Assembly (NCBI GenBank): GCA_050309795.1
Contig: JBNRMW010000016.1
Coordinates: 67,257 to 131,256 of the forward strand
Source of the DNA: Erysipelotrichaceae bacterium
GTDB taxonomy: Bacteria; Bacillota_I; Bacilli_A; Erysipelotrichales; Erysipelotrichaceae
Reading direction: 5' to 3'
Length of the DNA stretch: 64,000 bases
Shown: positions 4,609-43,173 of the stretch, in pieces
How the letters are laid out: the number at the start of each line of letters is the position of its first letter
How positions within the stretch are numbered: position 1 is the first letter of the stretch
The notes under the pieces: model-generated
Told to the model about the DNA's origin: nothing
The model's database searches: none
Seen by the model: the letters and a program-made list of their open reading frames with translations, nothing else
Program-made: the position numbers and the translations under genes

Positions 4609-4968
4609 ATGTCAATAGAACAATCAAATCGACTTGGTAGCATAAACATTTCACAAGATGCGATCGCCATGTTAGCGGGTGGAACCGTAACCGAATGTTA
4701 TGGTGTCGTCGGAATGGCATCACAAAAATTACTTAAAGACGGCTTTGCTGAGCTCTTACAAATTCAAAACTTTAAAAAAGGGGTCGTAGTCCGTAAAAAC
4801 GAAACCGGACTTGAAATCGATCTGTATATTATGGTCATGTACGGCACAAGAATTAGTGAAGTAGTCACTGGTGTTCAAGAGAAAGTCAAATATATTCTTG
4901 AAAAATCACTCGGCTATGAGATTACCGCCGTAAATGTTTATGTACAAGGAGTAAAGGTAGTTAAGTAA
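4609..4968 (+). CDS. Asp23/Gls24 family protein (YloU-like)
   Basis: Asp23-type sequence (ISQDAIAMLAGGTVTECYGVVGM). Paired with a DAK2 protein as in B. subtilis yloU-yloV. TGGTATAAT promoter at 4578-4586. Confidence 0.85.
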   Translation: MSIEQSNRLGSINISQDAIAMLAGGTVTECYGVVGMASQKLLKDGFAELLQIQNFKKGVVVRKNETGLEIDLYIMVMYGTRISEVVTGVQEKVKYILEKSLGYEITAVNVYVQGVKVVK

Positions 4969-16071: not shown

Positions 16072-16331
16072 TGACTAAAAAAATTCCAATGAGAACATGT
16101 GTCGCGACAGGGGAGCGCTTGGCAAAAAAAGACTTAATACGCGTGGTACGCACACCAGATAAAAAAGTGAAGGTTGATTTAACCGGTAAAGCTAATGGAC
16201 GGGGCGCTTATCTCAAGAAGAATTTAGAAGCTCTAACGATTGCCCAAAAAAAAGGGAGTCTAAAACGCGCCCTAAACGTAGAAATAGAACAGGAAGTCTA
16301 CGATGAACTTGCGAAAGTCATCAATGGTTGA
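16071..16331 (+). CDS. ylxR: YlxR/RnpM family RNA-binding protein (DUF448)
   Basis: PMRTCVATGERLAKKDLIRVV and GRGAY motifs. Conserved position after nusA. Confidence 0.88.
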   Translation: MTKKIPMRTCVATGERLAKKDLIRVVRTPDKKVKVDLTGKANGRGAYLKKNLEALTIAQKKGSLKRALNVEIEQEVYDELAKVING

Positions 16332-18857: not shown

Positions 18858-19589
18858 CTATAAGTATTTCGCAATAAATTGCTGAGCTTGAATGGTTTCT
18901 GGTTTTGAAAAAAACTGATCTGCGGGACTGTCTTCAATTATTCGACCGTCCATCATAAAGAGGATGCGATCACTCACTGCTTTCGCAAAACGCATTTCAT
19001 GAGTAACAATAACTAAGTTAAGGTGTTGTGTTTGACTCAACTCTTTAATAACCTCCAGCACTTCATCAACCATTTGGGGATCTAGGGCGGAAGTGGGCTC
19101 ATCTAAGAGTAAGACTTCCGGGTCCATACACAGCGAGCGAGCAATGGCGACTCGTTGTTTTTGTCCGCCAGAAAGCAGGGTAACCGATTGTTGGGCGTAG
19201 GCCTTCATTCCGACTTTTTCCAACATTTGTAAAGAAATGGCTTCGGCTTCTTCTTTTGTTCGTTTTAAAACTTTAATTTGAGCAATATTACAATTTTGAA
19301 TGACGGTCATATGATTGAAGAGGTTGAAAGACTGAAAGATCATCCCCACTTTTGATCGGTAGTAATTTTGATCAAAGGCGTCGTCATGAATGTTTTGACC
19401 TTTATATAAAATAGTTCCACTTTGATGGTCTTCCAAAAGATTTAAGGTGCGAAGCAACGTTGACTTACCAGATCCGGAAGGGCCGATGATGGCCGTAATT
19501 TCACCTTCATTAATGACAAGGTCGAGCTTGTGTAAGACTTGATGTTGGTCGTATCGTTTCGTTAATTTTTGAATTTCAAATAGGTTCAT
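18858..19589 (-). CDS. Polar amino-acid ABC transporter, ATP-binding protein
   Basis: Walker A GPSGSGKST, signature LSGGQKQR and Walker [12 protein letters not shown]. Confidence 0.92.
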   Translation of the reverse strand: MNLFEIQKLTKRYDQHQVLHKLDLVINEGEITAIIGPSGSGKSTLLRTLNLLEDHQSGTILYKGQNIHDDAFDQNYYRSKVGMIFQSFNLFNHMTVIQNCNIAQIKVLKRTKEEAEAISLQMLEKVGMKAYAQQSVTLLSGGQKQRVAIARSLCMDPEVLLLDEPTSALDPQMVDEVLEVIKELSQTQHLNLVIVTHEMRFAKAVSDRILFMMDGRIIEDSPADQFFSKPETIQAQQFIAKYL

Positions 19590-30337: not shown

Positions 30338-31481
30338 AGTTATTTTTCATATTGATTTGAATGCTTTTTTTGCGACCTGTGAACAGTTGCGTAATCCCGA
30401 TCTTTTTGGTAAACCAATTGCGGTGTGCACGGATTCGCGTGGGTCTGTGGTCACGACAGCTTCTTATGAGGCGCGTGCTTTTGGGGTTCATTCGGCACTA
30501 CCTTTAGCAATTGCCAAACAAAAATGTCCTCAATTGATTACGGTGGACGCTGATTTTCGTCTTTATCATAGAAAATCTATGGAGTTCATGGAATTTTTAA
30601 AAGGTTTTTCGACGATTATTGAGCCCGCTAGTATTGATGAAGCGTATCTAGATGTGACACAAATTATTAAAAAATATGAAAAACCGCTCCAATTGGCGAT
30701 TGATATTCAACAACAATTAAAACAGAAGACGGGTTTAAGGTGTTCGATAGGGATTGGTCCTAATAAGTTTTTAGCTAAAATGGCCTCCGATTTACGGAAA
30801 CCGGAAGGGATCTTTGTGCTTCGTAAGAGAGAAGTTCAACGAAAACTTTGGCCATTGGATATCGGTAAGATGCATGGAATTGGTCGTGTTAGTTCTCAAA
30901 AACTACGAGAAATCAATATTATAACCATTGGTGACTTAGCTATGGCACCATTAGAGCACTTGGTTCCGGTTTTAAAAAATCAAGCGTATTATTTCCAACA
31001 ACTTGCCTGGGGTGTTGATGATAGTGTTCTCGAAACCGACCATCAAGTCAAATCTATTTCGGCTTCCAACTCGCTGTATGATCCTTTATTTGAATATGAA
31101 GAAATAAGTCAAATGTTGAAGACACAAGCTACGGATATCGCCCGAAAATTAAATCAAGATCAACTAGGGGCACTTCAACTAAGTTTGACTGTGCGTAACG
31201 ATGTTTATCAACAATATTCCAAAAGTATCAGCATTAAATCGCCCATAACGGACGCACAAGATATGTATCAACAAGCTTTACTTCTCTATGATCAGTTTGA
31301 AGTTGAGGGTGGCATTAAATATTGTGGCTTGTTTGTCAACCGCTTTGAATCCGTCGAGGATGATATTTTTACCTTATTTAATCAGCAACAAAATATTTCA
31401 AGTCAAGAAATTATCCAAAAAGTGAATGATTTGTTTGATGGAAAAGTCTTGAAGAGGGGAAGTGAAGCATCTAATGACTGA
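30330..31481 (+). CDS. dinB: DNA polymerase IV (Y-family)
   Basis: HIDLNAFFATCEQ, SIDEAYLDV and the little-finger domain. ATG at 30330 overlaps the recN stop. Confidence 0.9.
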   Translation: MAKVIFHIDLNAFFATCEQLRNPDLFGKPIAVCTDSRGSVVTTASYEARAFGVHSALPLAIAKQKCPQLITVDADFRLYHRKSMEFMEFLKGFSTIIEPASIDEAYLDVTQIIKKYEKPLQLAIDIQQQLKQKTGLRCSIGIGPNKFLAKMASDLRKPEGIFVLRKREVQRKLWPLDIGKMHGIGRVSSQKLREINIITIGDLAMAPLEHLVPVLKNQAYYFQQLAWGVDDSVLETDHQVKSISASNSLYDPLFEYEEISQMLKTQATDIARKLNQDQLGALQLSLTVRNDVYQQYSKSISIKSPITDAQDMYQQALLLYDQFEVEGGIKYCGLFVNRFESVEDDIFTLFNQQQNISSQEIIQKVNDLFDGKVLKRGSEASND

Positions 31482-32379
31482 AACAAAACAGTTGAGTGCT
31501 GATTTTCTACAAACCTTAAAATATGTCTTGCAACATTCACCCGCAACACTGGATGCTTATCAACGGGATTTACAAAAGTTTTTTGAATTTTGTGAGCGAC
31601 ATCACTTTAAAATATTAGAAGTTACTTCTCAGGATATTATTACTTTTATTAGCTCATTGGGCGAACAATTTAGTCAGGCAACGATTTCTCGGATATTGAG
31701 TAGTTTGCATCAGTTTTATAAATGGTTGGTTTTACAACGGTATTTAACTGTTGATCCGACGTTGTTTGTTTCTGTTGTTAAGAAGCCTTCGGAAGCAACG
31801 AACTTTTTAACCCATGTGGAGTTTTTGGAATTGATTGATTTTCCTTTAGAAAAGCCGGTTGATTATTTAGATCGAACATTATTGGAGCTTTTATATGGGT
31901 CGGGTTTACGAGTTTCTGAAGCACTTTCGCTTCAGTTCAAGCATATACACCATCGCGAACGTTTACTGAATATTATTGGTAAGGGACAAAAGCAACGTCT
32001 GGTACCTTTCTCCCAAAACTTTTTTGAGATTTATGAGCAATATTTGATCACTTATCGTCAACTTTATGTAAAAAATCGCAGCGAGTTTATTTTTATTAAC
32101 CGCAAATCACTGCCACTTTCCAGGCAATCCGTTTATAATATGGTTGCTAAGCGGGCGCGTGCAGCAGGCTTTACAAAAAAAGTGAGCCCCCATGTCTTGC
32201 GTCATAGTTTTGCTTCTGCACTGATTGGTGCTGGAGCGAATTTACGGGTCATCCAAGAGCTTTTAGGTCACCAAGATATTTCAACGACGCAGATCTATAC
32301 ACATTTGAAAATGGATGAGAAAAGGGCTATGTACGATCAATATCACCCGTTAAGCAAAAGAAAGAAGGAAGAAAAATGA
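31462..32379 (+). CDS. xerD: Tyrosine site-specific recombinase, XerD/XerC family
   Basis: Catalytic [24 protein letters not shown] and no phage context. Lies next to deoB as B. subtilis ripX does. The XerD versus XerC assignment is uncertain. Confidence 0.8.
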
Positions 32380-33557
32380 AATTTAAACGAATCATTGTCC
32401 TTGTCATGGACTCGGTAGGAATCGGTAATGCCCATGACGCGCATTTATTTGACGATGTTGGAGCCAACACTCTCGAGACGATTGCTAACGCGATGGGCGG
32501 GCTAAACGTTCCAAATTTAGCTTATTTGGGCTTGGGTAATCTACACCCTTTAAAAGGAGTTGAACCTCAAACAAATCCCCATGTTGTTTATACGACCATG
32601 CAAGAAGCAAGTGCTTCTAAAGATACCATGACGGGTCATTGGGAAATGATGGGTCTCTACTTAGACGAACCATTCCAGACATTTACGGAAACCGGTTTTC
32701 CTGAGGAGTTACTAGAAGCTTTAAGTGCACAAACGGGTCATCCAATTATTGGTAATAAATCGGCTAGTGGAACCGTTATTTTGGATGAGCTTGGTGAAGA
32801 ACATATGAAAACGGGAGCAATGATTGTATATACCTCTGCTGATTCGGTCTTACAAATTGCGGCACATGAAGAGACCTTTGGTCTTCAAGAGCTTTATCGT
32901 TGTTGTGAAATTGCTCGCGAGTTAACCATGAAACCTGAATGGAAGGTTGGTCGCATCATTGCGCGTCCATTTGTTGGTCCAAAAAAAGGGGAATTCAAGC
33001 GCACATCAAATCGACATGATTATGCCTTAAAGCCTTTTGGTAAGACGGCTTTAGATCATTTGAAAGCAGCTAATTTTGATGTTGTTTCAGTTGGAAAAAT
33101 CGTTGATATCTTTGATGGGGAAGGGATAACCAGCGCCCATCGTACCGTATCCAATGAAGACGGTATGAACCAAACCATTGCCTTATTGGATGAAAACTTC
33201 ACAGGCTTACTCTTTATTAACTTGGTTGACTTCGACGCATTATGGGGCCATCGACGCGATCCGATCGGTTATGGCAAAGGATTAGAAGCCTTTGATGTCC
33301 AATTAAAAGAGGTCATTGCGAAAATAAGGCCAGATGATTTACTCTTGGTGACCGCAGATCATGGCAATGATCCAGGATTTAAAGGAACCGATCATACACG
33401 AGAAGAAGTTCCACTATTAATGTATTCTCCACAACTTGAAGGGGGTTACTATTTAAGTAAACGTCAAACCTTTGCGGACGTTGGTCAAACCATTAGCGAT
33501 AACTTCAAAGTTAATTCAACGACGTATGGAACGTCGTTCCTAGATGAATTAGAATAA
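32376..33557 (+). CDS. deoB: Phosphopentomutase
   Basis: [10 protein letters not shown], the DFD..WGHRRD motif and TADHGNDP. Confidence 0.93.
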
Positions 33558-33584
33558 TATGTCATAATATACATTATACGAAGA
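33557..33584 (-). other. dif: Candidate dif site (XerC/XerD chromosome dimer resolution site)
   Basis: The minus strand reads TCTTCGTATAA TGTATA TTATGACATAT. The 15 nt ATAATGTATATTATG are identical to the E. coli dif core. Identity is 20/28 to both the E. coli and B. subtilis dif as I recall them. The site sits exactly where gene orientation converges and 1.2 kb from xerD. Confidence 0.6.
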
Positions 33585-33608
33585 TAATTAATTCATCAAA
33601 TATTAAGT

Positions 33609-33634
33609 AAAAACGGTATCCATAATGAATACCG
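33609..33634 (-). terminator. Terminator for the minus-strand metallopeptidase/hup transcription unit
   Basis: The minus strand has cggtat-N9-ataccg followed by TTTTT. Confidence 0.6.
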
Positions 33635-33656
33635 CTTCCATATAAATCAAGATAAT

Positions 33657-33687
33657 AGCTCTAAAACCCTCGGTTTGGAGCTTTTTT
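33657..33687 (+). terminator. Terminator for deoB
   Basis: agctct(a)aaacc-ctc-ggttt ggagct extended stem followed by TTTTT. The T-tract overlaps the stop codon of the convergent gene. Confidence 0.7.
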
Positions 33688-34399
33688 AATCGCGTCGCGA
33701 ACCACGCATTAAGAACAACCGTAAAATCGTAGCTAATGTTCCTAAAAATGCAGCAATATATGTAAAAGCTGCGGCATTTAACATGCCACGTGCAGCAGAG
33801 ACTTCGCTAGAAGTCACCATCTGTTGTTCTTGAAGTTCTTTAATCGCCCGCGTGGATGCATTAATTTCAACTGGTAAAGTAATCAGCTGAAATAGACCAA
33901 TAATACCAATCAAAACGATCCCAATCAAAAACAACGAATCAAGACCGGAAAATAAACCAATCATTAAGACGGTCCAACCTAATTGGGATGAAATCATCGC
34001 TAATGGTAGAACGCGGTTTCTGAGCCCGATGAAGCCATACTGTTCATGATATTGTAAAACGTGTCCAATTTCATGAGCAGCAATGCTTGCTGAAGCGATG
34101 GTTTTACCGTAATAAACTTCTTTAGATAAATTCACCACATTCGTTTGTGGGTTAAAATGGTCGCTTAAAACGCCACCTCGTGGATTTTCTTGAACAGTTA
34201 TGTAGTTAATTCCGTGACGATTTAGTATTCTTTGAGCAACTTCATATCCCGATAATTGTGAATATGATAACATTTTTCGATATTTTTGATAGCGATTTTG
34301 AACCCATGTTTGAGCCCCTAAGGACAAGGCAAAAGTGATCATAATTAAGAAGAATTGCATGCCTCCACTATTGAAAAAATTAGTTAAAATGTAATTCAT
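33686..34399 (-). CDS. Membrane zinc metallopeptidase (YugP-like, Zn_peptidase_2 family)
   Basis: HEIGHVLQ zinc motif, with N-terminal and C-terminal TM helices. Confidence 0.8.
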   Translation of the reverse strand: MNYILTNFFNSGGMQFFLIMITFALSLGAQTWVQNRYQKYRKMLSYSQLSGYEVAQRILNRHGINYITVQENPRGGVLSDHFNPQTNVVNLSKEVYYGKTIASASIAAHEIGHVLQYHEQYGFIGLRNRVLPLAMISSQLGWTVLMIGLFSGLDSLFLIGIVLIGIIGLFQLITLPVEINASTRAIKELQEQQMVTSSEVSAARGMLNAAAFTYIAAFLGTLATILRLFLMRGSRRD

Positions 34400-34814: not shown

Positions 34815-36131
34815 TTAGTTTACATTATTCTTCCGTAAGATGATCCGAATCGGTACCCCTTCAAACTCAAAAGCATCGCGTAAACGATTTTCTAAATAGC
34901 GTTTGTAAGAGAAATGACATAATTCTGGGTCATTTACAAAGAGCACAAACGTTGGTGGACCAATCGAGACCTGTGAAGCAAAATAAATACGCAGTCTTTG
35001 GCCACTATGCGTTGGGGGTGGTGTGAATAATTGAGCATCCATAATGACTTCATTAACCACCGAAGTAGCAATGCGCAACTGACTGTTCTCATATACTTGT
35101 TGGATCTGTGGAACCAGTGTATGCACGCGCTGTCTGGTTTTCGCAGAAACAAAAACAATCGGTGCATAATTAATATACACAAATTCGTTACGAATATCTT
35201 GAGTTACCTCGTTCATTGTTGTGTGATCTTTTTCAATAACATCCCATTTGTTGTAAACAATAATGATTGGTTTGCCTTCGTTATGCGCATAACCAGCGAC
35301 CGTTTTATCTTGTTGACGAATACCTTGTTCCCCATCAATGACAAATAAAACAACATCTGCACGCTCAATTGCGGTGAGTGCTCTTAAAACGGCATATTTT
35401 TCAACAGATTCATAAACTTTTCCGCGTTTACGGATACCTGCCGTATCAATGGCGACGTATTGTTGACCATCAAACTTAAACGGTGTATCGATCGCATCAC
35501 GGGTCGTCCCAGCAATATCCGAAACAATGACGCGTTCTTCATTTAGAATCGCATTAACTAAAGAAGATTTTCCGACATTTGGCTGTCCAATAATCGCAAA
35601 TTTAATAAATCCATCGTAAGCTGACTGTTTTCGTGTCCCATCCAATAGTTTGATGGTCTGATCTAAGACATCGCCGATCCCAATTCCATGAGAACAAGAA
35701 ATAGGTAACGGTTCCCCTACCCCAAGTTTATAAAACTCGTAGGATTGGTACGTTAAATGAAAATCATCTATCTTATTGACGGCAAGTACAATTGGTTTTT
35801 GTGATTTATGTAACATTCTTGCGATCATTTGATCGTCGTCGGTTAAACCTTCCCGTCCATTCACCACAAAAATAATGACATCGGCCTCATCGATGGCGAT
35901 TTCTACCTGAACTTTTATCTCTTCAATAAATGGTAATTCTTCAATTTGAATCCCCCCCGTATCAATGAAACGGAGTTCTTTGGTGAGCCATTGGACCTGA
36001 CCATAAATCCGGTCTCTAGTCACCCCGGGCGTATCTTCCACAATTGAAACCCGATCGCCAATAATTCGATTAAAAAGTGAAGATTTTCCAACATTTGGTC
36101 TTCCAACAATCGCGACAATACCATCAATCAT
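34815..36131 (-). CDS. der: Ribosome-associated GTPase Der (EngA), two G domains
   Basis: Two GxPNVGKS P-loops ([18 protein letters not shown]) and a KH-like C-terminus. The Met at 36131 gives the canonical N-terminus ([17 protein letters not shown]) and overlaps the cmk stop. Confidence 0.93.
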
Positions 36132-36804
36132 GGGTAACAACCCCTTTCTTCTTTTTTTCAATAATCGTTAATATTTCTTCAAACACTTCATCCAAGGACA
36201 AAGCAGAGGTATCAATGATAATGGCATCATCCGCCGGTCTTAACGGCGATTCTTGACGATGCCGATCTTGATAATCACGGACCATTAAGTCTTGTTTCAG
36301 TTCTTCAAATACAGGGTTTAAACCTCTGGCTTTCAATTCTAAAAATCGCCGCATCGCTCGAACATGGGTAGAAGCCGTTAAAAATATTTTCACTTGTGCT
36401 TGTGGTAAAACAACAGTTCCGATGTCTCGACCATCCATTACACAATCCATTTGTTTAGCCATAGCTTGTTGCTTTTCAACTAACTTTTCCCGAACCAAGC
36501 GGTTTTTGGAAATATCACTGGCCAACAAGGAAATAGTTTCCTCCCGCAAGGCTAACGTGATATCGACTTGGTCGAGAAAAACTTTTTGATCAGCTTTTAA
36601 TTGAAGATCCATCTGATCAATCATCGTTAATATTTCTTCTAAATCATTGTTTATGGAAAGCTTTTTTTGAGCAACAAGGTAGGCCACCGCACGATACATC
36701 GAACCGGTGTTGATATGAATCATATGGAGATGTCGGGCGATGCGCATCGCCAGCACCGATTTCCCAGAGGCACTTGGTCCATCAATCGCAATCGAAAAAT
36801 TCAT
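36124..36804 (-). CDS. cmk: Cytidylate kinase
   Basis: [13 protein letters not shown]-loop, GSMYRA and DGRDIGT. Confidence 0.92.
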
Positions 36805-38694: not shown

Positions 38695-39252
38695 TTAGGC
38701 TCTTCCGGAGTATTTTCCATCATCCGTATTGACCATGATGATTTCATCCGTATTGATAAATAAAGGCACTTTTACTTGGAAGCCGGTTTCAACCGTTGCG
38801 TTTTTCATAGCTGAAGTCGCGGTATCGCCCCGAACTGCTGGTTCGGTTTCCACCACTCTAAGAGCAACTTTATCCGGTAAAATGACCCCAATAATTTCCG
38901 TTTTAAACATGGTAATGGTGCAATTCTCATTTTCTTTGAGGAAATTAATCTCCCATTTTAAATTTTCTTTACGGATTTCTAGTTGTTCGTAAGTTGAAAC
39001 ATCCATGAAGACTAGCGCTTCTCCAGAATCATATAAATACTGCATGGTCCGTTTTTCAATCATTGCAGGTTCGACCTTATCCCCACCAGTGTAGGCCAGT
39101 TCCGTAATGTTGTTTGAGCGTAAGTTGCGAACTTTAACCTTGATATTCATTTGTCCACGAGCGGTTTTATTACGTGAAACATCCATGGCTTGATAAATTT
39201 CACCATCTTGTTGAAAGGTATAGCCTGGTCTTAAATCATTAACTAAGATCAT
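38695..39252 (-). CDS. efp: Translation elongation factor P (Arg at loop-tip position 32)
   Basis: Full-length EF-P alignment (MILVNDLRPG... VETEPAVRGDTA...). The Met at 39252 gives the canonical N-terminus. The loop reads SRNKTARGQ instead of HVKPGKGAA. Confidence 0.9.
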   Translation of the reverse strand: MILVNDLRPGYTFQQDGEIYQAMDVSRNKTARGQMNIKVKVRNLRSNNITELAYTGGDKVEPAMIEKRTMQYLYDSGEALVFMDVSTYEQLEIRKENLKWEINFLKENENCTITMFKTEIIGVILPDKVALRVVETEPAVRGDTATSAMKNATVETGFQVKVPLFINTDEIIMVNTDDGKYSGRA

Positions 39253-39265
39253 AATTGTCAATCTC

Positions 39266-39688
39266 CTATTCGTTAGCATCATAAGTATACGTCTTCATCG
39301 TAAAATTATCAAGGTCCAAACTACAGGAGGCCACAAACTGATGCTTTCCAGAAACGACAATTTTACATTCATCCGCTAAAAGATGAACCACGACCTGTGA
39401 ATTATAGAGTTCAAACTCTAAATCATCAACACAATGAGCATCGACTAAACATTTAATCGCGCGTAATTCAATCTCTTGAGCTTGTCTAGCTTTCTTGTAG
39501 AACATGGATTGAAGGCGTTGATACAGGTTCATTTGGGCGGCGATAGTCAATGAAAAAAACACAGTTGACGTAACAACCAAGGTCGATAATAGAACAAACC
39601 CTCTACTCTTTAAGTCGTTGAAAGCGCGATTGATATAAGTCTCCTTGATATTCATATTCCAAAATAATTTCCTCAGTATGTAGTTCAA
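39266..39688 (-). CDS. comGG: ComGG-like minor pseudopilin
   Basis: Last gene of the comG operon, with a degenerate prepilin-like N-terminus KSRGFVLLSTLVV. The start is uncertain (39688 or 39655). Confidence 0.6.
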   Translation of the reverse strand: MNYILRKLFWNMNIKETYINRAFNDLKSRGFVLLSTLVVTSTVFFSLTIAAQMNLYQRLQSMFYKKARQAQEIELRAIKCLVDAHCVDDLEFELYNSQVVVHLLADECKIVVSGKHQFVASCSLDLDNFTMKTYTYDANE

Positions 39689-40013
39689 TGTTTAGCGTTT
39701 TTACATCAAATAGTAAAATCTCGTAGCCCGGTGTTTTAACGAGCCGTTGATCCAAATGCTCTAAACAGCGAGTTTCTTCAGATAATAAGGTATAGCACAA
39801 CCCCTTCTCCCTTATTTCAAAATGATTTGATAACATCCATTCATGCTGAAGTTGAAGCTCAAATATCAGACGTTGATCCACAAAATTTTCACTATTTTCT
39901 ATCGTCGCTACTAAAGCCAACAATCCATAAAACAGTAAAAACAAAAGCGATAAAAAACTAAGCCCCAACAACATCTCTAGTAAAGTAAAACCTCGTGACT
40001 TCAACGAGCCCAT
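39603..40013 (-). CDS. comGF: ComGF-like minor pseudopilin
   Basis: Prepilin leader MGSLKSRG/FTLLEM and a QHEWMLS motif resembling B. subtilis ComGF QQEWMIS. Confidence 0.65.
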   Translation of the reverse strand: MGSLKSRGFTLLEMLLGLSFLSLLFLLFYGLLALVATIENSENFVDQRLIFELQLQHEWMLSNHFEIREKGLCYTLLSEETRCLEHLDQRLVKTPGYEILLFDVKTLNIELHTEEIILEYEYQGDLYQSRFQRLKE

Positions 40014-40094
40014 GTCAATACCAACAATAAAACTTCCAAAACGAACGAAAGTATTAAAAACGACAACAAGATTTCCAATAATATAAAGCCATTT

Positions 40095-40412
40095 TTAACG
40101 GATAACATAGCGACCCATACCTAATTGCACCACAAAGATCAATCTTTTAAATTTAATTGTTTGGGCTTGATTTATCGCCCCACGAGCATTAAAGGTTAAC
40201 GACGAGACATTACTATTCGTTGTCGGCAAGGTGGTCCTTTGTTTAAGAGCAAGGGCTCGGACTTGTTGGTAGAGATAATGTTGTTCAAATACTTTAACAG
40301 AATCTGATTTGGGCATTTGATACTGAAGGGTCCAGCCACTAATTAAAGTGACAATGAACATAACAACCAACATCTCTAACAAAGTAAATCCGTTAAGGCG
40401 AAATTTGAGCAT
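40095..40412 (-). CDS. comGD: ComGD-like minor pseudopilin
   Basis: Prepilin motif LNG/FTLLEMLVV. The Met at 40412 overlaps the end of comGC; an alternative start is 40445. Confidence 0.7.
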   Translation of the reverse strand: MLKFRLNGFTLLEMLVVMFIVTLISGWTLQYQMPKSDSVKVFEQHYLYQQVRALALKQRTTLPTTNSNVSSLTFNARGAINQAQTIKFKRLIFVVQLGMGRYVIR

Positions 40413-40689
40413 GACCGTTTTCAATATGGATTTTTCGACCATCATGACATTGAGTTTGTCGTTGGGTAATGTAGTTAGCTTTAACTAAGTCTTGGACACT
40501 TGCGGATTGCACATCTTGGTCTAAAAGATACTGAACCAACGCCGCATCAACAACTTTTAATTGAACGTCACAACCTTTATCTGCGACCACTTTCACCGTA
40601 TTAGAGACATTGGGTATGGTCAACAAAAACAAAACCGCAACCACTGTCATGACCACAATCATTTCTAACAATGTAAATCCTTTTTTCAT
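40393..40689 (-). CDS. comGC: Major competence pseudopilin ComGC
   Basis: MKKG/FTLLEMIVVMTVV class III signal peptide; 98 aa. Confidence 0.85.
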   Translation of the reverse strand: MKKGFTLLEMIVVMTVVAVLFLLTIPNVSNTVKVVADKGCDVQLKVVDAALVQYLLDQDVQSASVQDLVKANYITQRQTQCHDGRKIHIENGHAQISP

Positions 40690-40704
40690 ACACCTACCTC
40701 CTTT

Positions 40705-41679
40705 CTATAAACTATTTAGAAGCTGCATGGGTGTAAATAGGAGTTGATACAACAAAATCATTAATAGACCAATTAAAACGTAAACAAATCCTTGTAAAAT
40801 AGTAGAAAGTCGCTTAATCATGACCTTGATGATGCGTTCATTAATTTCTAAATAGGTTTCTAAATGCTCTTTAAGTGTGTTTGCTAAGGTGGCGATATGA
40901 ATAAAACGAATAAAACTTGGATCAAAAAGCGCTGGATTAAAGGCTTCTTCTATGCTTTGTCCTTCATCTAATTCATAAATTGTTAAAATAGCCAACCAGC
41001 GAACAATATTTGAAAATTGTGCCGTTTTCATTAACGTCAGAATTTGTTTCGTTGAAGCTCCATAAGCTAAATACAAGTGGAATAAATAAGCAAAGAAATG
41101 CGTATAGATCTTTTTCCCTAATACCAATAGCCGACTATTTTTAAAGAGAAGAATAAAGATTTTTTGATTTTTTGGATTTAAAAGCAAAAATAGTGCGACA
41201 ACTAAAAACAAAAAGGACAAACTCATAAATATAAAAACAACCAACAAAAAACCATAAATAAAAGATGCCGAAGCAGTGGTCAAATCCATATCCACCAACA
41301 AACTTTGAAGACTTGGATAAAGTCGAAATAAAAACAAACTTAACACCACATACAAAACAACTAATAATAAACTTGGATACCAAAGTTGTTTAAAAATATC
41401 CTGTTTTAGTTTTTGATTAAATGACTTAAAAGCGACATCGATTTCTAATAATTGCTCATACGATAAATACTGACTCAATTGCTCAAAAGCGCTGAGATTG
41501 TTGGCATAAGTGTACCGAGTATAGTCTTGAAGACTTTCCGGTTTTAACACCAGTTCCGTCCGGATGATGTCATAATTAATATTTAATTGTCGATATGCTA
41601 AGACGAGCGATATTTCAGCGAGCGAGGGTTTGGAGATAAGCTTGGATTTCAGTATTTCCCAAAAGTTGAAATTGTGCAT
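40705..41679 (-). CDS. comGB: Competence pseudopilus platform protein ComGB (GspF family)
   Basis: Polytopic GspF-like protein after comGA. ATG at 41679 lies 9 nt after gagg and overlaps the comGA 3' end by 65 nt. Confidence 0.75.
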   Translation of the reverse strand: MHNFNFWEILKSKLISKPSLAEISLVLAYRQLNINYDIIRTELVLKPESLQDYTRYTYANNLSAFEQLSQYLSYEQLLEIDVAFKSFNQKLKQDIFKQLWYPSLLLVVLYVVLSLFLFRLYPSLQSLLVDMDLTTASASFIYGFLLVVFIFMSLSFLFLVVALFLLLNPKNQKIFILLFKNSRLLVLGKKIYTHFFAYLFHLYLAYGASTKQILTLMKTAQFSNIVRWLAILTIYELDEGQSIEEAFNPALFDPSFIRFIHIATLANTLKEHLETYLEINERIIKVMIKRLSTILQGFVYVLIGLLMILLYQLLFTPMQLLNSL

Positions 41680-42499
41680 AGCGGTCATCCTCTTTGACTT
41701 TTAACTGTTGATAGACGAGTGTTATATCCAACATCATCAAATCATAAATAGAAACATCAAAATCTAGTAAACGAGCAATGGTGCTGTGTAAATTAGCTGA
41801 ATGAATCGTACTACAAACCAGATGACCTGCTAAACCACAGCGAATCAAAGCATGCGCTTCTTGTGGTGATCGAATTTCCCCCAGGGCTAAAATATCGGGA
41901 TCATGTCTCAGAAGTTGTTTAACCACTGCATCATAGGTCAGCCCAGTTTTGAGATTGATTTGAACCTGCATCAAAGCGTCATAGTGTATTTCTATCGGGT
42001 CTTCAATGGTATAAATCGATTGATGTGGACATTGTTGTAAGACGGTGAACATACTCGTTGTTTTTCCACTTCCAGTCATTCCAGCAAACAAAATTAAACC
42101 GCTTTTTTGTTGAAACTGTTGGCTGATGTAATGAAGAGTTGTTTGAGGTTCTCCTAATTGATATAGGTCCTCAATCATTGTTAAGTTTAAGATTCTTATA
42201 ACCCCAGATTTTATAAACAATGTTTCCAGAGCTGAAAATCGACAATAATATTCAACGTCGTTCACAATATAAGAAAAACTACCGGATTGGGGGACAAGCG
42301 TTGAGGTTAAATCCAAATTTGCTAAATACTTTAAATAGTGATACAACGATTCATCAACCAACTCCTCGTTTTCAATTTGAAGTCCCTTAATCGTGCGAAA
42401 TTGAACAACAACGGCTTGTTTGGTAAAGTGCAGGTGAATATCTGTCGCTCGTTGACTAATGGCTAGGGATAAGAGATGTTCAAGTCGATGTTCTACCAT
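41615..42499 (-). CDS. comGA: Competence pseudopilus assembly ATPase ComGA (GspE/PilB family)
   Basis: Walker A GMTGSGKTT, Asp box, Walker B and His box (LGEIR..., STIHS). Confidence 0.88.
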   Translation of the reverse strand: MVEHRLEHLLSLAISQRATDIHLHFTKQAVVVQFRTIKGLQIENEELVDESLYHYLKYLANLDLTSTLVPQSGSFSYIVNDVEYYCRFSALETLFIKSGVIRILNLTMIEDLYQLGEPQTTLHYISQQFQQKSGLILFAGMTGSGKTTSMFTVLQQCPHQSIYTIEDPIEIHYDALMQVQINLKTGLTYDAVVKQLLRHDPDILALGEIRSPQEAHALIRCGLAGHLVCSTIHSANLHSTIARLLDFDVSIYDLMMLDITLVYQQLKVKEDDRYAQFQLLGNTEIQAYLQTLAR

Positions 42500-42546
42500 A
42501 TATTTAAATAGCTGTTCAATGCGCTCATACCTAAAAAAAACCTCAT

Positions 42547-43173
42547 CTATCGATAAGGTTTTAAGAATGGATTATGTTTTTTTTCATGACGCATTTGCGA
42601 CGATGGCCCATGCCCTGGATAAATATACCAGTCGTCTGGCCATTTCATAGCTTTTGTTAGTGACCTTTTCATGGCTTCCATGTCTCCTAAAATTAAATCC
42701 GTACGTCCAATACTGTTTTTAAAAAGGAAATCCCCAACAAAGACATGATTTTCAATTTGAAAAGATAACGACCCAGGGGTATGTCCAGGCGTCTTAAAGA
42801 CTTCAAAGGTAAAGTCCCCTACTTTTAAAGGACTTTCTTCAATTTTAGTGACCTCTAAATCAATCATCAAAGGATCGGTAATCTGGGCACTTAGATTTAA
42901 TTGAGGATCTTTCAAAAAAGGAAAATCTGTTTTTGAAATAAAAATAGGCACCGGAAACTTTTCGTAAAGAAAATTCAAACCTGCGATATGGTCGTAGTGA
43001 CCATGCGTTAAAATAACGCCTTGTAGATTTGAATCTTTAAGTGCATCTAAAATGGGGTCAATAGAACCATATCGATCAATCATACAATCGAATAGAATGG
43101 CCTGGTTGCCCCTTTTTAGTACATAGCAATTGGTTTCAAAAGACCCTAATGTTAACGTTGTAATCGTTAGCAT
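42547..43173 (-). CDS. MBL-fold metallo-hydrolase
   Basis: THGHYDHIAG metal-binding motif and GHTPGS; 208 aa. Confidence 0.85.
   Translation of the reverse strand: MLTITTLTLGSFETNCYVLKRGNQAILFDCMIDRYGSIDPILDALKDSNLQGVILTHGHYDHIAGLNFLYEKFPVPIFISKTDFPFLKDPQLNLSAQITDPLMIDLEVTKIEESPLKVGDFTFEVFKTPGHTPGSLSFQIENHVFVGDFLFKNSIGRTDLILGDMEAMKRSLTKAMKWPDDWYIYPGHGPSSQMRHEKKHNPFLKPYR

Follow-up and report, generated by a model that had tools for sequence, protein, structure and literature searches.

The closest described relatives of the locus analyzed here are the XerC/XerD-dif systems of the Firmicutes, exemplified by CodV/RipX-dif of Bacillus subtilis and by sites predicted in Enterococcus and Lactobacillus, which have the same 28-bp site with an 11-6-11 layout and the same location at a GC-skew shift point. 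The dif sites of Lactobacillus casei and L. rhamnosus have a left arm of the form nCTTCG(C/T)ATAA, the same type as seen here, and in Enterococcus faecalis the centre together with the inner arms, ATAATGTATATTATG, is also the same. The outer part of the right arm departs from this group, with a Firmicutes consensus of T(A/T)AA(C/G)T against ACATAT here, including an A at position 23. In B. subtilis, ripX is located beside drm, as the recombinase gene described below is beside deoB, but the tight linkage of xer and dif is found here and not there.

More distant systems show other combinations of these features. The XerCD-dif site of Escherichia coli, GGTGCGCATAATGTATATTATGTTAAAT, has the same 15-nt core including TGTATA and the same location at the terminus, but differs in both of its outer arms. 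Proteobacterial dif sites in metagenome-assembled genomes (MAGs) of Steroidobacteraceae, Hyphomicrobiales and Caulobacterales have in common with our site the 21-mer TTCG(C/T)ATAATGTATATTATGA, with A at position 23, and are present in a single copy per genome, many of them at local skew maxima; however, these are unrelated phyla, the outer part of the right arm is CAAAT rather than CATAT, and as far as examined the sites are without the xer linkage observed here. Such linkage, together with unequal conservation of the two arms, is a feature of XerS/difSL in the Streptococcaceae and XerH/difH in the Campylobacterota. Those systems nonetheless differ in having recombinases of ∼355 aa that are only distantly related, and in the case of difSL a 31-bp site with an 11-bp centre, whereas the present locus has a recombinase of 301–305 aa and a 28-bp site with a 6-bp centre; it thus has the gene-site linkage of the XerS and XerH systems but neither their atypical site nor their larger recombinase.

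The DNA analyzed, referred to here as the window, is a 64-kb stretch of core chromosome encoding ruvB, murG, murB, recG, polC, nusA, infB, recN, dinB, der and cmk, among others. It contains a 28-mer between two converging sets of genes that is very probably the chromosomal dif site at the replication terminus of a Bacilli/Erysipelotrichales-like bacterium. The features of the region are as follows.

31462–32379, plus strand: tyrosine recombinase of the XerD/XerC family, 301–305 aa, with the residues R-K-HxxR-H-Y all present.
32376–33557, plus strand: deoB (phosphopentomutase; TIGR01696, 575 bits), the last gene of the xer-deoB operon.
33557–33584, minus strand: predicted dif site, 28 bp, TCTTCGTATAA-TGTATA-TTATGACATAT; the conserved block in alignment A1.
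33574–33584, minus strand: left arm (XerC-type), TCTTCGTATAA; the clade form is nnTTCG(C/T)ATAA and is nearly invariant.
33568–33573, minus strand: 6-bp central region TGTATA, the same as the centre of E. coli dif and invariant in all relatives.
33557–33567, minus strand: right arm (XerD-type), TTATGACATAT, with an invariant TTATG on the inner side and 6 outer nt that depart from the Firmicutes consensus.
33608–33640, minus strand: terminator-like hairpin and T-run, of intrinsic type, of the Zn-peptidase/hup operon, ending 23 bp before dif.
33657–33682, plus strand: terminator-like hairpin and T-run, of intrinsic type, of the xer-deoB operon.
33686–34399, minus strand: gene of the Zn_peptidase_2 family, the first of the opposite replichore, followed by hup, der and cmk.

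Read directly on the minus strand from 33584 to 33557, the site is TCTTCGTATAATGTATATTATGACATAT, and it has the classical 11-6-11 layout that the original prediction had assigned to it, with two 11-bp arms flanking a 6-bp centre and with inner halves, ATAA and TTAT, that are inverted relative to each other. That prediction had also reported an uninterrupted 15-nt identity with E. coli dif, ATAATGTATATTATG, which is indeed common to both sequences, and 20 matches in 28 positions to the dif sites of both E. coli and B. subtilis; the latter figure is correct for B. subtilis, but the E. coli site matches at 21 of the 28 positions. The two reference sequences quoted there are verbatim those of Kono et al. 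2011 (PMC3025954). Identity to the predicted dif site of E. faecalis V583, ACTTTGTATAATGTATATTATGTTAACT, is 22/28. The described position at the deoB stop codon is also accurate, the last base of the site being the final A of the TAA (33555–33557).

The 44 different dif sequences listed for Firmicutes in the supplementary table of Kono et al. 2011 were combined into a position weight matrix, against which the 28-mer scores 15.9 bits. The next-best position in the window on either strand scores 3.2 bits, such that a search with a dif profile, called for genome-wide in the original prediction, returns the 28-mer as the single best match within the 64 kb. An exact calculation of the score distribution gives a per-position probability of 4.8e-8, corresponding to 0.006 expected matches per window, ∼1e-5 within the 128-bp convergent gap and ∼0.2 in a genome of 2 Mb. 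The score is lower than that of any of the 44 published Firmicutes sites (leave-one-out minimum 21.5 bits), and this is due entirely to the right arm: the left arm contributes +11.9 bits and the centre +6.6 bits, or +18.5 bits together, and the right arm −2.6 bits. Position 23, for example, is T in 44 of 44 published Firmicutes sites and A in the 28-mer. The 44 sites catalogued in 2011 include none from an Erysipelotrichales-type clade, and against the relatives in its own clade the 28-mer is a near-perfect match.

The location of the site is that expected of a terminus. Across the window, GC skew changes from positive values in roughly the left-hand 33 kb to negative values in the right-hand 30 kb, and the cumulative GC skew reaches its maximum at 33385, a plus-to-minus switch of the terminus type; the extremum thus falls 172 bp from the 28-mer, in agreement with the skew test that had been proposed. 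This maximum of the 64-kb window is presumably also the global extremum of the replicon. Genes left of the site are on the plus strand and those right of it on the minus strand, with the switch at 33557/33686, and the site lies within the 128-bp gap between them, precisely at the convergence of gene orientation claimed in the original prediction. Co-orientation with the inferred direction of replication extends to 45 of the 51 ORFs of at least 150 aa and to 91% of ORF bases. The six genes in the lagging orientation have a coding-strand GC3 skew of −0.111, compared with +0.045 for genes in the leading orientation, and the skew therefore tracks replication and the leading strand, not merely transcription.

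Several polar oligomers were considered as further signals and were rejected. The octamer GATGCGAT is present in 16 copies between window positions 4657 and 63721, against 2–4 expected from low-order Markov models, and all of these (16:0) have the leading-strand orientation, which flips across the dif site. All copies are nonetheless in codon frame 0, encoding Asp-Ala-Ile/Met, and the octamer is therefore a coding artefact of codon and peptide usage and gene co-orientation rather than a KOPS-like or Chi-like signal or independent evidence of FtsK guidance. GAAGAAG points at the site (26:3) but is confounded with gene orientation, and so does not constitute independent polar evidence; GGGNAGGG also points at the site (6:0), but is either too infrequent or similarly confounded.

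The gene for a XerD/XerC-family recombinase that had been noted 1.2 kb upstream is present and ends 1178 bp from the site. The catalytic columns are invariant in the alignment of its homologues (A2), and the protein is predicted from these residues to be catalytically intact. NCBIfam scores are 274.8 bits for XerD and 271.8 bits for XerC, both under the cut-off, and 107 bits for the XerS model, for which the cut-off is 267. The best match among solved structures is E. coli XerD (1a0p, E = 3.9e-45), with XerH (5jjv) at E = 3.6e-18; annotated homologues are labelled XerD, and the closest named relative, 46% identical, comes from a MAG that carries the label Erysipelothrix sp. We conclude that the recombinase is probably a XerD orthologue. 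Neither a XerC paralogue nor any second Xer is encoded in the 64-kb window, that is, within 30 kb on either side, and FtsK is likewise not encoded in the window. The literature yielded no decisive figure for the number of Xer genes in the Erysipelotrichales.

From established Xer biology, the left arm, TCTTCGTATAA, would be expected to bind one Xer protein, and the right arm, TTATGACATAT, to bind the XerD-like product of the gene 1.2 kb upstream. Once sister chromosomes have been fused into a dimer by homologous recombination, the two copies of dif would synapse at the closing septum, most likely with the aid of an FtsK/SpoIIIE-type translocase. Strand exchange would occur within the 6-bp central region TGTATA, sequential pairs of exchanges proceeding through a Holliday-junction intermediate to restore monomers.

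The convergent gap contains, to the right of the site, the two terminator-like hairpins, both of which are conserved in the relatives with 88–97% recombinase identity and both of which are distinct from the dif site. Since the hairpin of the xer-deoB operon lies beyond the site, the transcript of this operon includes dif in its 3′ untranslated part. An Rfam scan of the intergenic region identified no RNA family, the sole match being a meaningless one of 18 bits.

Exact matches to the DeoB protein come only from short assemblies of public sequencing runs, and together with the Erysipelothrix sp. label of the recombinase's closest named relative this points to an uncultured Bacilli/Erysipelotrichales-like lineage. 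Orthologous loci were compared in relatives whose recombinases are 97, 88, 69 and 61% identical to that of the window, and the convergent gaps were aligned (A1). Gene order is the same in all of these, with recN-dinB-xer-deoB converging on Zn-peptidase-hup-der-cmk. Of the first 24 positions of the site 22 are invariant in A1, the retained block being TTCG(T/C)ATAATGTATATTATGA(C/A)AT, while the flanks cannot be aligned in the two more distant lineages. One of the loci, L010, has a 13-bp insertion between the site and the deoB stop codon, and conservation of the site is therefore not a coding constraint. In three deeper relatives with 43–46% recombinase identity, the Erysipelothrix sp. MAG among them, deoB is followed by one additional gene (DJ-1/PfpI), and the convergent gap contains ACTTCGCATAATGTATATTATG, which has the same strand orientation and is ∼100–160 bp or less from the local skew maximum. 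Eight further lineages of the clade keep the site where genes converge and skew switches at the orthologous locus, and its conservation at the orthologous position is seen in A1 and in nine other loci. It is thus a phylogenetic footprint, retained while the intergenic DNA around it diverges and between genomes whose recombinases are 43–88% identical. The profile within the window, the skew switch, the convergence of genes and the conservation in relatives agree with one another, and support the interpretation of the original prediction that this is dif at the terminus. Such a site is an ordinary feature, of a known kind.

Two aspects of the clade are mildly unusual, these being the linkage of xer and dif and the invariance of the left rather than the right arm. 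In every clade member examined the site is directly 3′ of the xer operon, 0–2 genes downstream of xer itself. The arrangement is xer-deoB-dif in the window and its close relatives, xer-deoB-pfpI-dif in L051–L053, and xer-deoB-ORF90-dif in L048, L055 and probably L023; in L045 no gene separates xer from dif, and the site abuts the stop codon of xer. The gene on the far side varies, and may be the Zn-peptidase, purF or a ribonucleotide reductase. Within the site, the first 22 nt (the left arm, the centre and TTATG) are nearly invariant across the clade, and the last 6 nt, which form the outer part of the right arm, are found as ACATAT, ACATAA, AAATTA, ACATTT, AAATTT, ACACGT, CGTAAA, TAATTA and TAATTT. 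The divergence of this outer half-arm had been taken to lower confidence in the site; it is real when judged against the 2011 catalogue, but it is a clade-wide trait, which answers that concern. The drift of the outer right arm and the diverged XerD-like protein together suggest that recognition of this arm is relaxed or co-evolving, and the divergence plausibly reflects co-evolution with that protein. We also note several lineages in which the variable right-arm end either shares bases with the upstream stop codon or adjoins it, as at window position 33557 (the A of the deoB TAA), at L052:12657–12659 (where the pfpI TAA is positions 26–28 of the site) and at L045:5189–5192 (where the site abuts the xer stop codon). 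Stop-codon overlap may contribute to how the outer right half-arm drifts.

The foremost alternative is that the site is dif but is served on both arms by a single XerD-derived recombinase, in a self-contained xer-dif module like those of XerS/difSL and XerH/difH, with strong binding at the invariant left arm and cooperative binding at the degenerate right arm. We regard this as unlikely, although several observations point toward it. The constant position of the site 3′ of the xer operon, with varying far-side genes, is suggestive, as are the poor conservation of the outer right arm and the presence of only one Xer gene within 30 kb on either side; the XerD and XerC models give the protein equal scores, both below the cut-offs, and the inner 7 nt of the two arms form a perfect palindrome (CGCATAA/TTATGCG) in the Erysipelothrix sp. 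MAG. Against this, the site has the 28-bp length and 6-bp centre of a classical dif, unlike the atypical difSL or difH, its outer arm halves consistently differ with an asymmetry about that of E. coli dif, and its left arm equals that of the Lactobacillus sites, which are served by XerC/CodV-type proteins. The recombinase is of normal Xer size rather than ∼355 aa, has all of the catalytic residues, resembles E. coli XerD most closely among solved structures, has homologues annotated as XerD, and scores poorly on the XerS model. The xerD-deoB adjacency is also present in B. subtilis (ripX-drm), so that the linkage may reflect only the terminus location. Proximity of dif to the recombinase gene has been regarded as a possible hallmark of single-recombinase systems (PMC5357621), but systems with two recombinases likewise often have a xer gene close to dif (Kono et al., PMC3025954), and XerC and XerD are reported to be widespread and ancient in the Firmicutes (PMC8136486). 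Were a single recombinase to act here, Erysipelotrichales-type Bacilli would add another to the bacterial Xer systems that use one recombinase, and theirs would be the first with a canonical 6-bp-centre dif.

The preferred reading, that of a chromosomal dif site, was also examined by searching for its sequence elsewhere. The window has no other copy of the 28-mer at up to three mismatches, and a scan of 185,579 species-representative genomes (GTDB) for TTCGYATAATGTATATTATGA matched this 21-mer core in 40 genomes, in one copy each. Multiple copies had been named in advance as the mark of a repeat element, and the single copy in the window and in each of the 40 representatives argues against one. 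One match is a relative with 61% recombinase identity. Others are a complete Coprobacillaceae chromosome, Ileibacterium valens, two MAGs labelled ‘Bacillota bacterium’ and a Thomasclavelia MAG, and in all of these others the core is at a sharp skew switch, for example from +0.30 to −0.20 in L045 and from +0.15 to −0.17 in L023. The far-side genes are different in the Coprobacillaceae, Thomasclavelia and a 25%-GC Bacillota MAG. In the Coprobacillaceae chromosome (CP139560.1) the site is at ∼1.025 Mb of 3.175 Mb, or ∼32% of the record, a figure that is uninformative without the position of the origin. Many of the 40 matches are proteobacterial MAGs with the right arm TTATGACAAAT (TTATGA), and the normal diversity of dif thus extends to sites with A at position 23. 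A metagenome scan with a clade-specific 24-mer gave a single match, with an arrangement as in Thomasclavelia, and the 21-mer core is absent from 2.9 million viral contigs, which were scanned for Xer-exploiting phages.

Two of the loci encountered have unrelated genes beside the site. In Ileibacterium valens NZ_MPJW01000110 (L018:2356–3240), the dif variant ACTTCGCATAATGTATATTATGACACGT is located 27 bp from the 3′ end of a gene for a 276-aa tyrosine integrase; this protein was rejected as a Xer orthologue on the basis of its 24% identity, internal insertion and different architecture (the contig is 3.7 kb). An unrelated Firmicute contig, Ga0307249_10001920 of JGI 3300029305 (L054:16140–19304), has a canonical-looking dif, ATATCCGACAATATATATTATGTTAACT, on the minus strand at 16140–16167 and near a local skew maximum, adjoined by small minus-strand ORFs that include a rolling-circle Rep (PF01719) and an AAA protein. 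Another dif-like 28-mer, weaker but oriented in the same way, is at 19277–19304. This block may be an integrated Xer-exploiting element (IMEX).

Elements of this type create dif-like sites beside dif, and both the Rep-encoding block in the unrelated locus and the non-orthologous integrase in Ileibacterium lend some plausibility to the idea that the 28-mer is a secondary Xer-type site – an IMEX attachment site or remnant, or a plasmid-type resolution site – rather than one for chromosomal dimer resolution. We consider this very improbable, as the window has one dif-like sequence with no mobile-element genes around it, the housekeeping genes on its flanks show synteny throughout the clade, and the core is single-copy per genome and has no match among the viral contigs. 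That the 28-mer is a chance AT-rich palindrome or a transcription element 3′ of deoB (an operator, terminator or RNA motif) is close to refuted, its position in the 3′ untranslated region and a weak sigma-70-like match that overlaps it being outweighed by the ∼1e-5 expectation for the gap, the absence of an Rfam match, the placement of the actual terminators in separate hairpins further downstream, and the occurrence of the same 21-mer at skew switches in other phyla beside different genes.

As a chromosomal dif site, the 28-mer would mark the terminus and the replichore boundary of an uncultured and poorly sampled lineage of the Bacilli, a placement that is useful for genome finishing, the orientation of MAGs and analyses of strand bias. 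It would also extend the catalogue of Firmicutes dif sites to an Erysipelotrichales-type clade, whose right arm would fail a profile trained on the 44 catalogue sites. The clade-wide linkage of xer and dif and the reversed pattern of arm conservation offer small but testable hints about the co-evolution of recombinase and site.

Two further observations concern the genes to the right of the terminus. In the window cmk directly adjoins der, with an overlap of 38 bp (36124–36161; 34815–36161) and without rpsA between them, unlike the order cmk-rpsA-der of B. subtilis and many Bacilli. At 38695–43173, or 5–10 kb to the right of the terminus, synteny with annotated relatives identifies efp followed by a comG-type competence pseudopilus operon encoding a T2SSE ATPase, T2SSF, and ComGC and ComGF-like prepilins.
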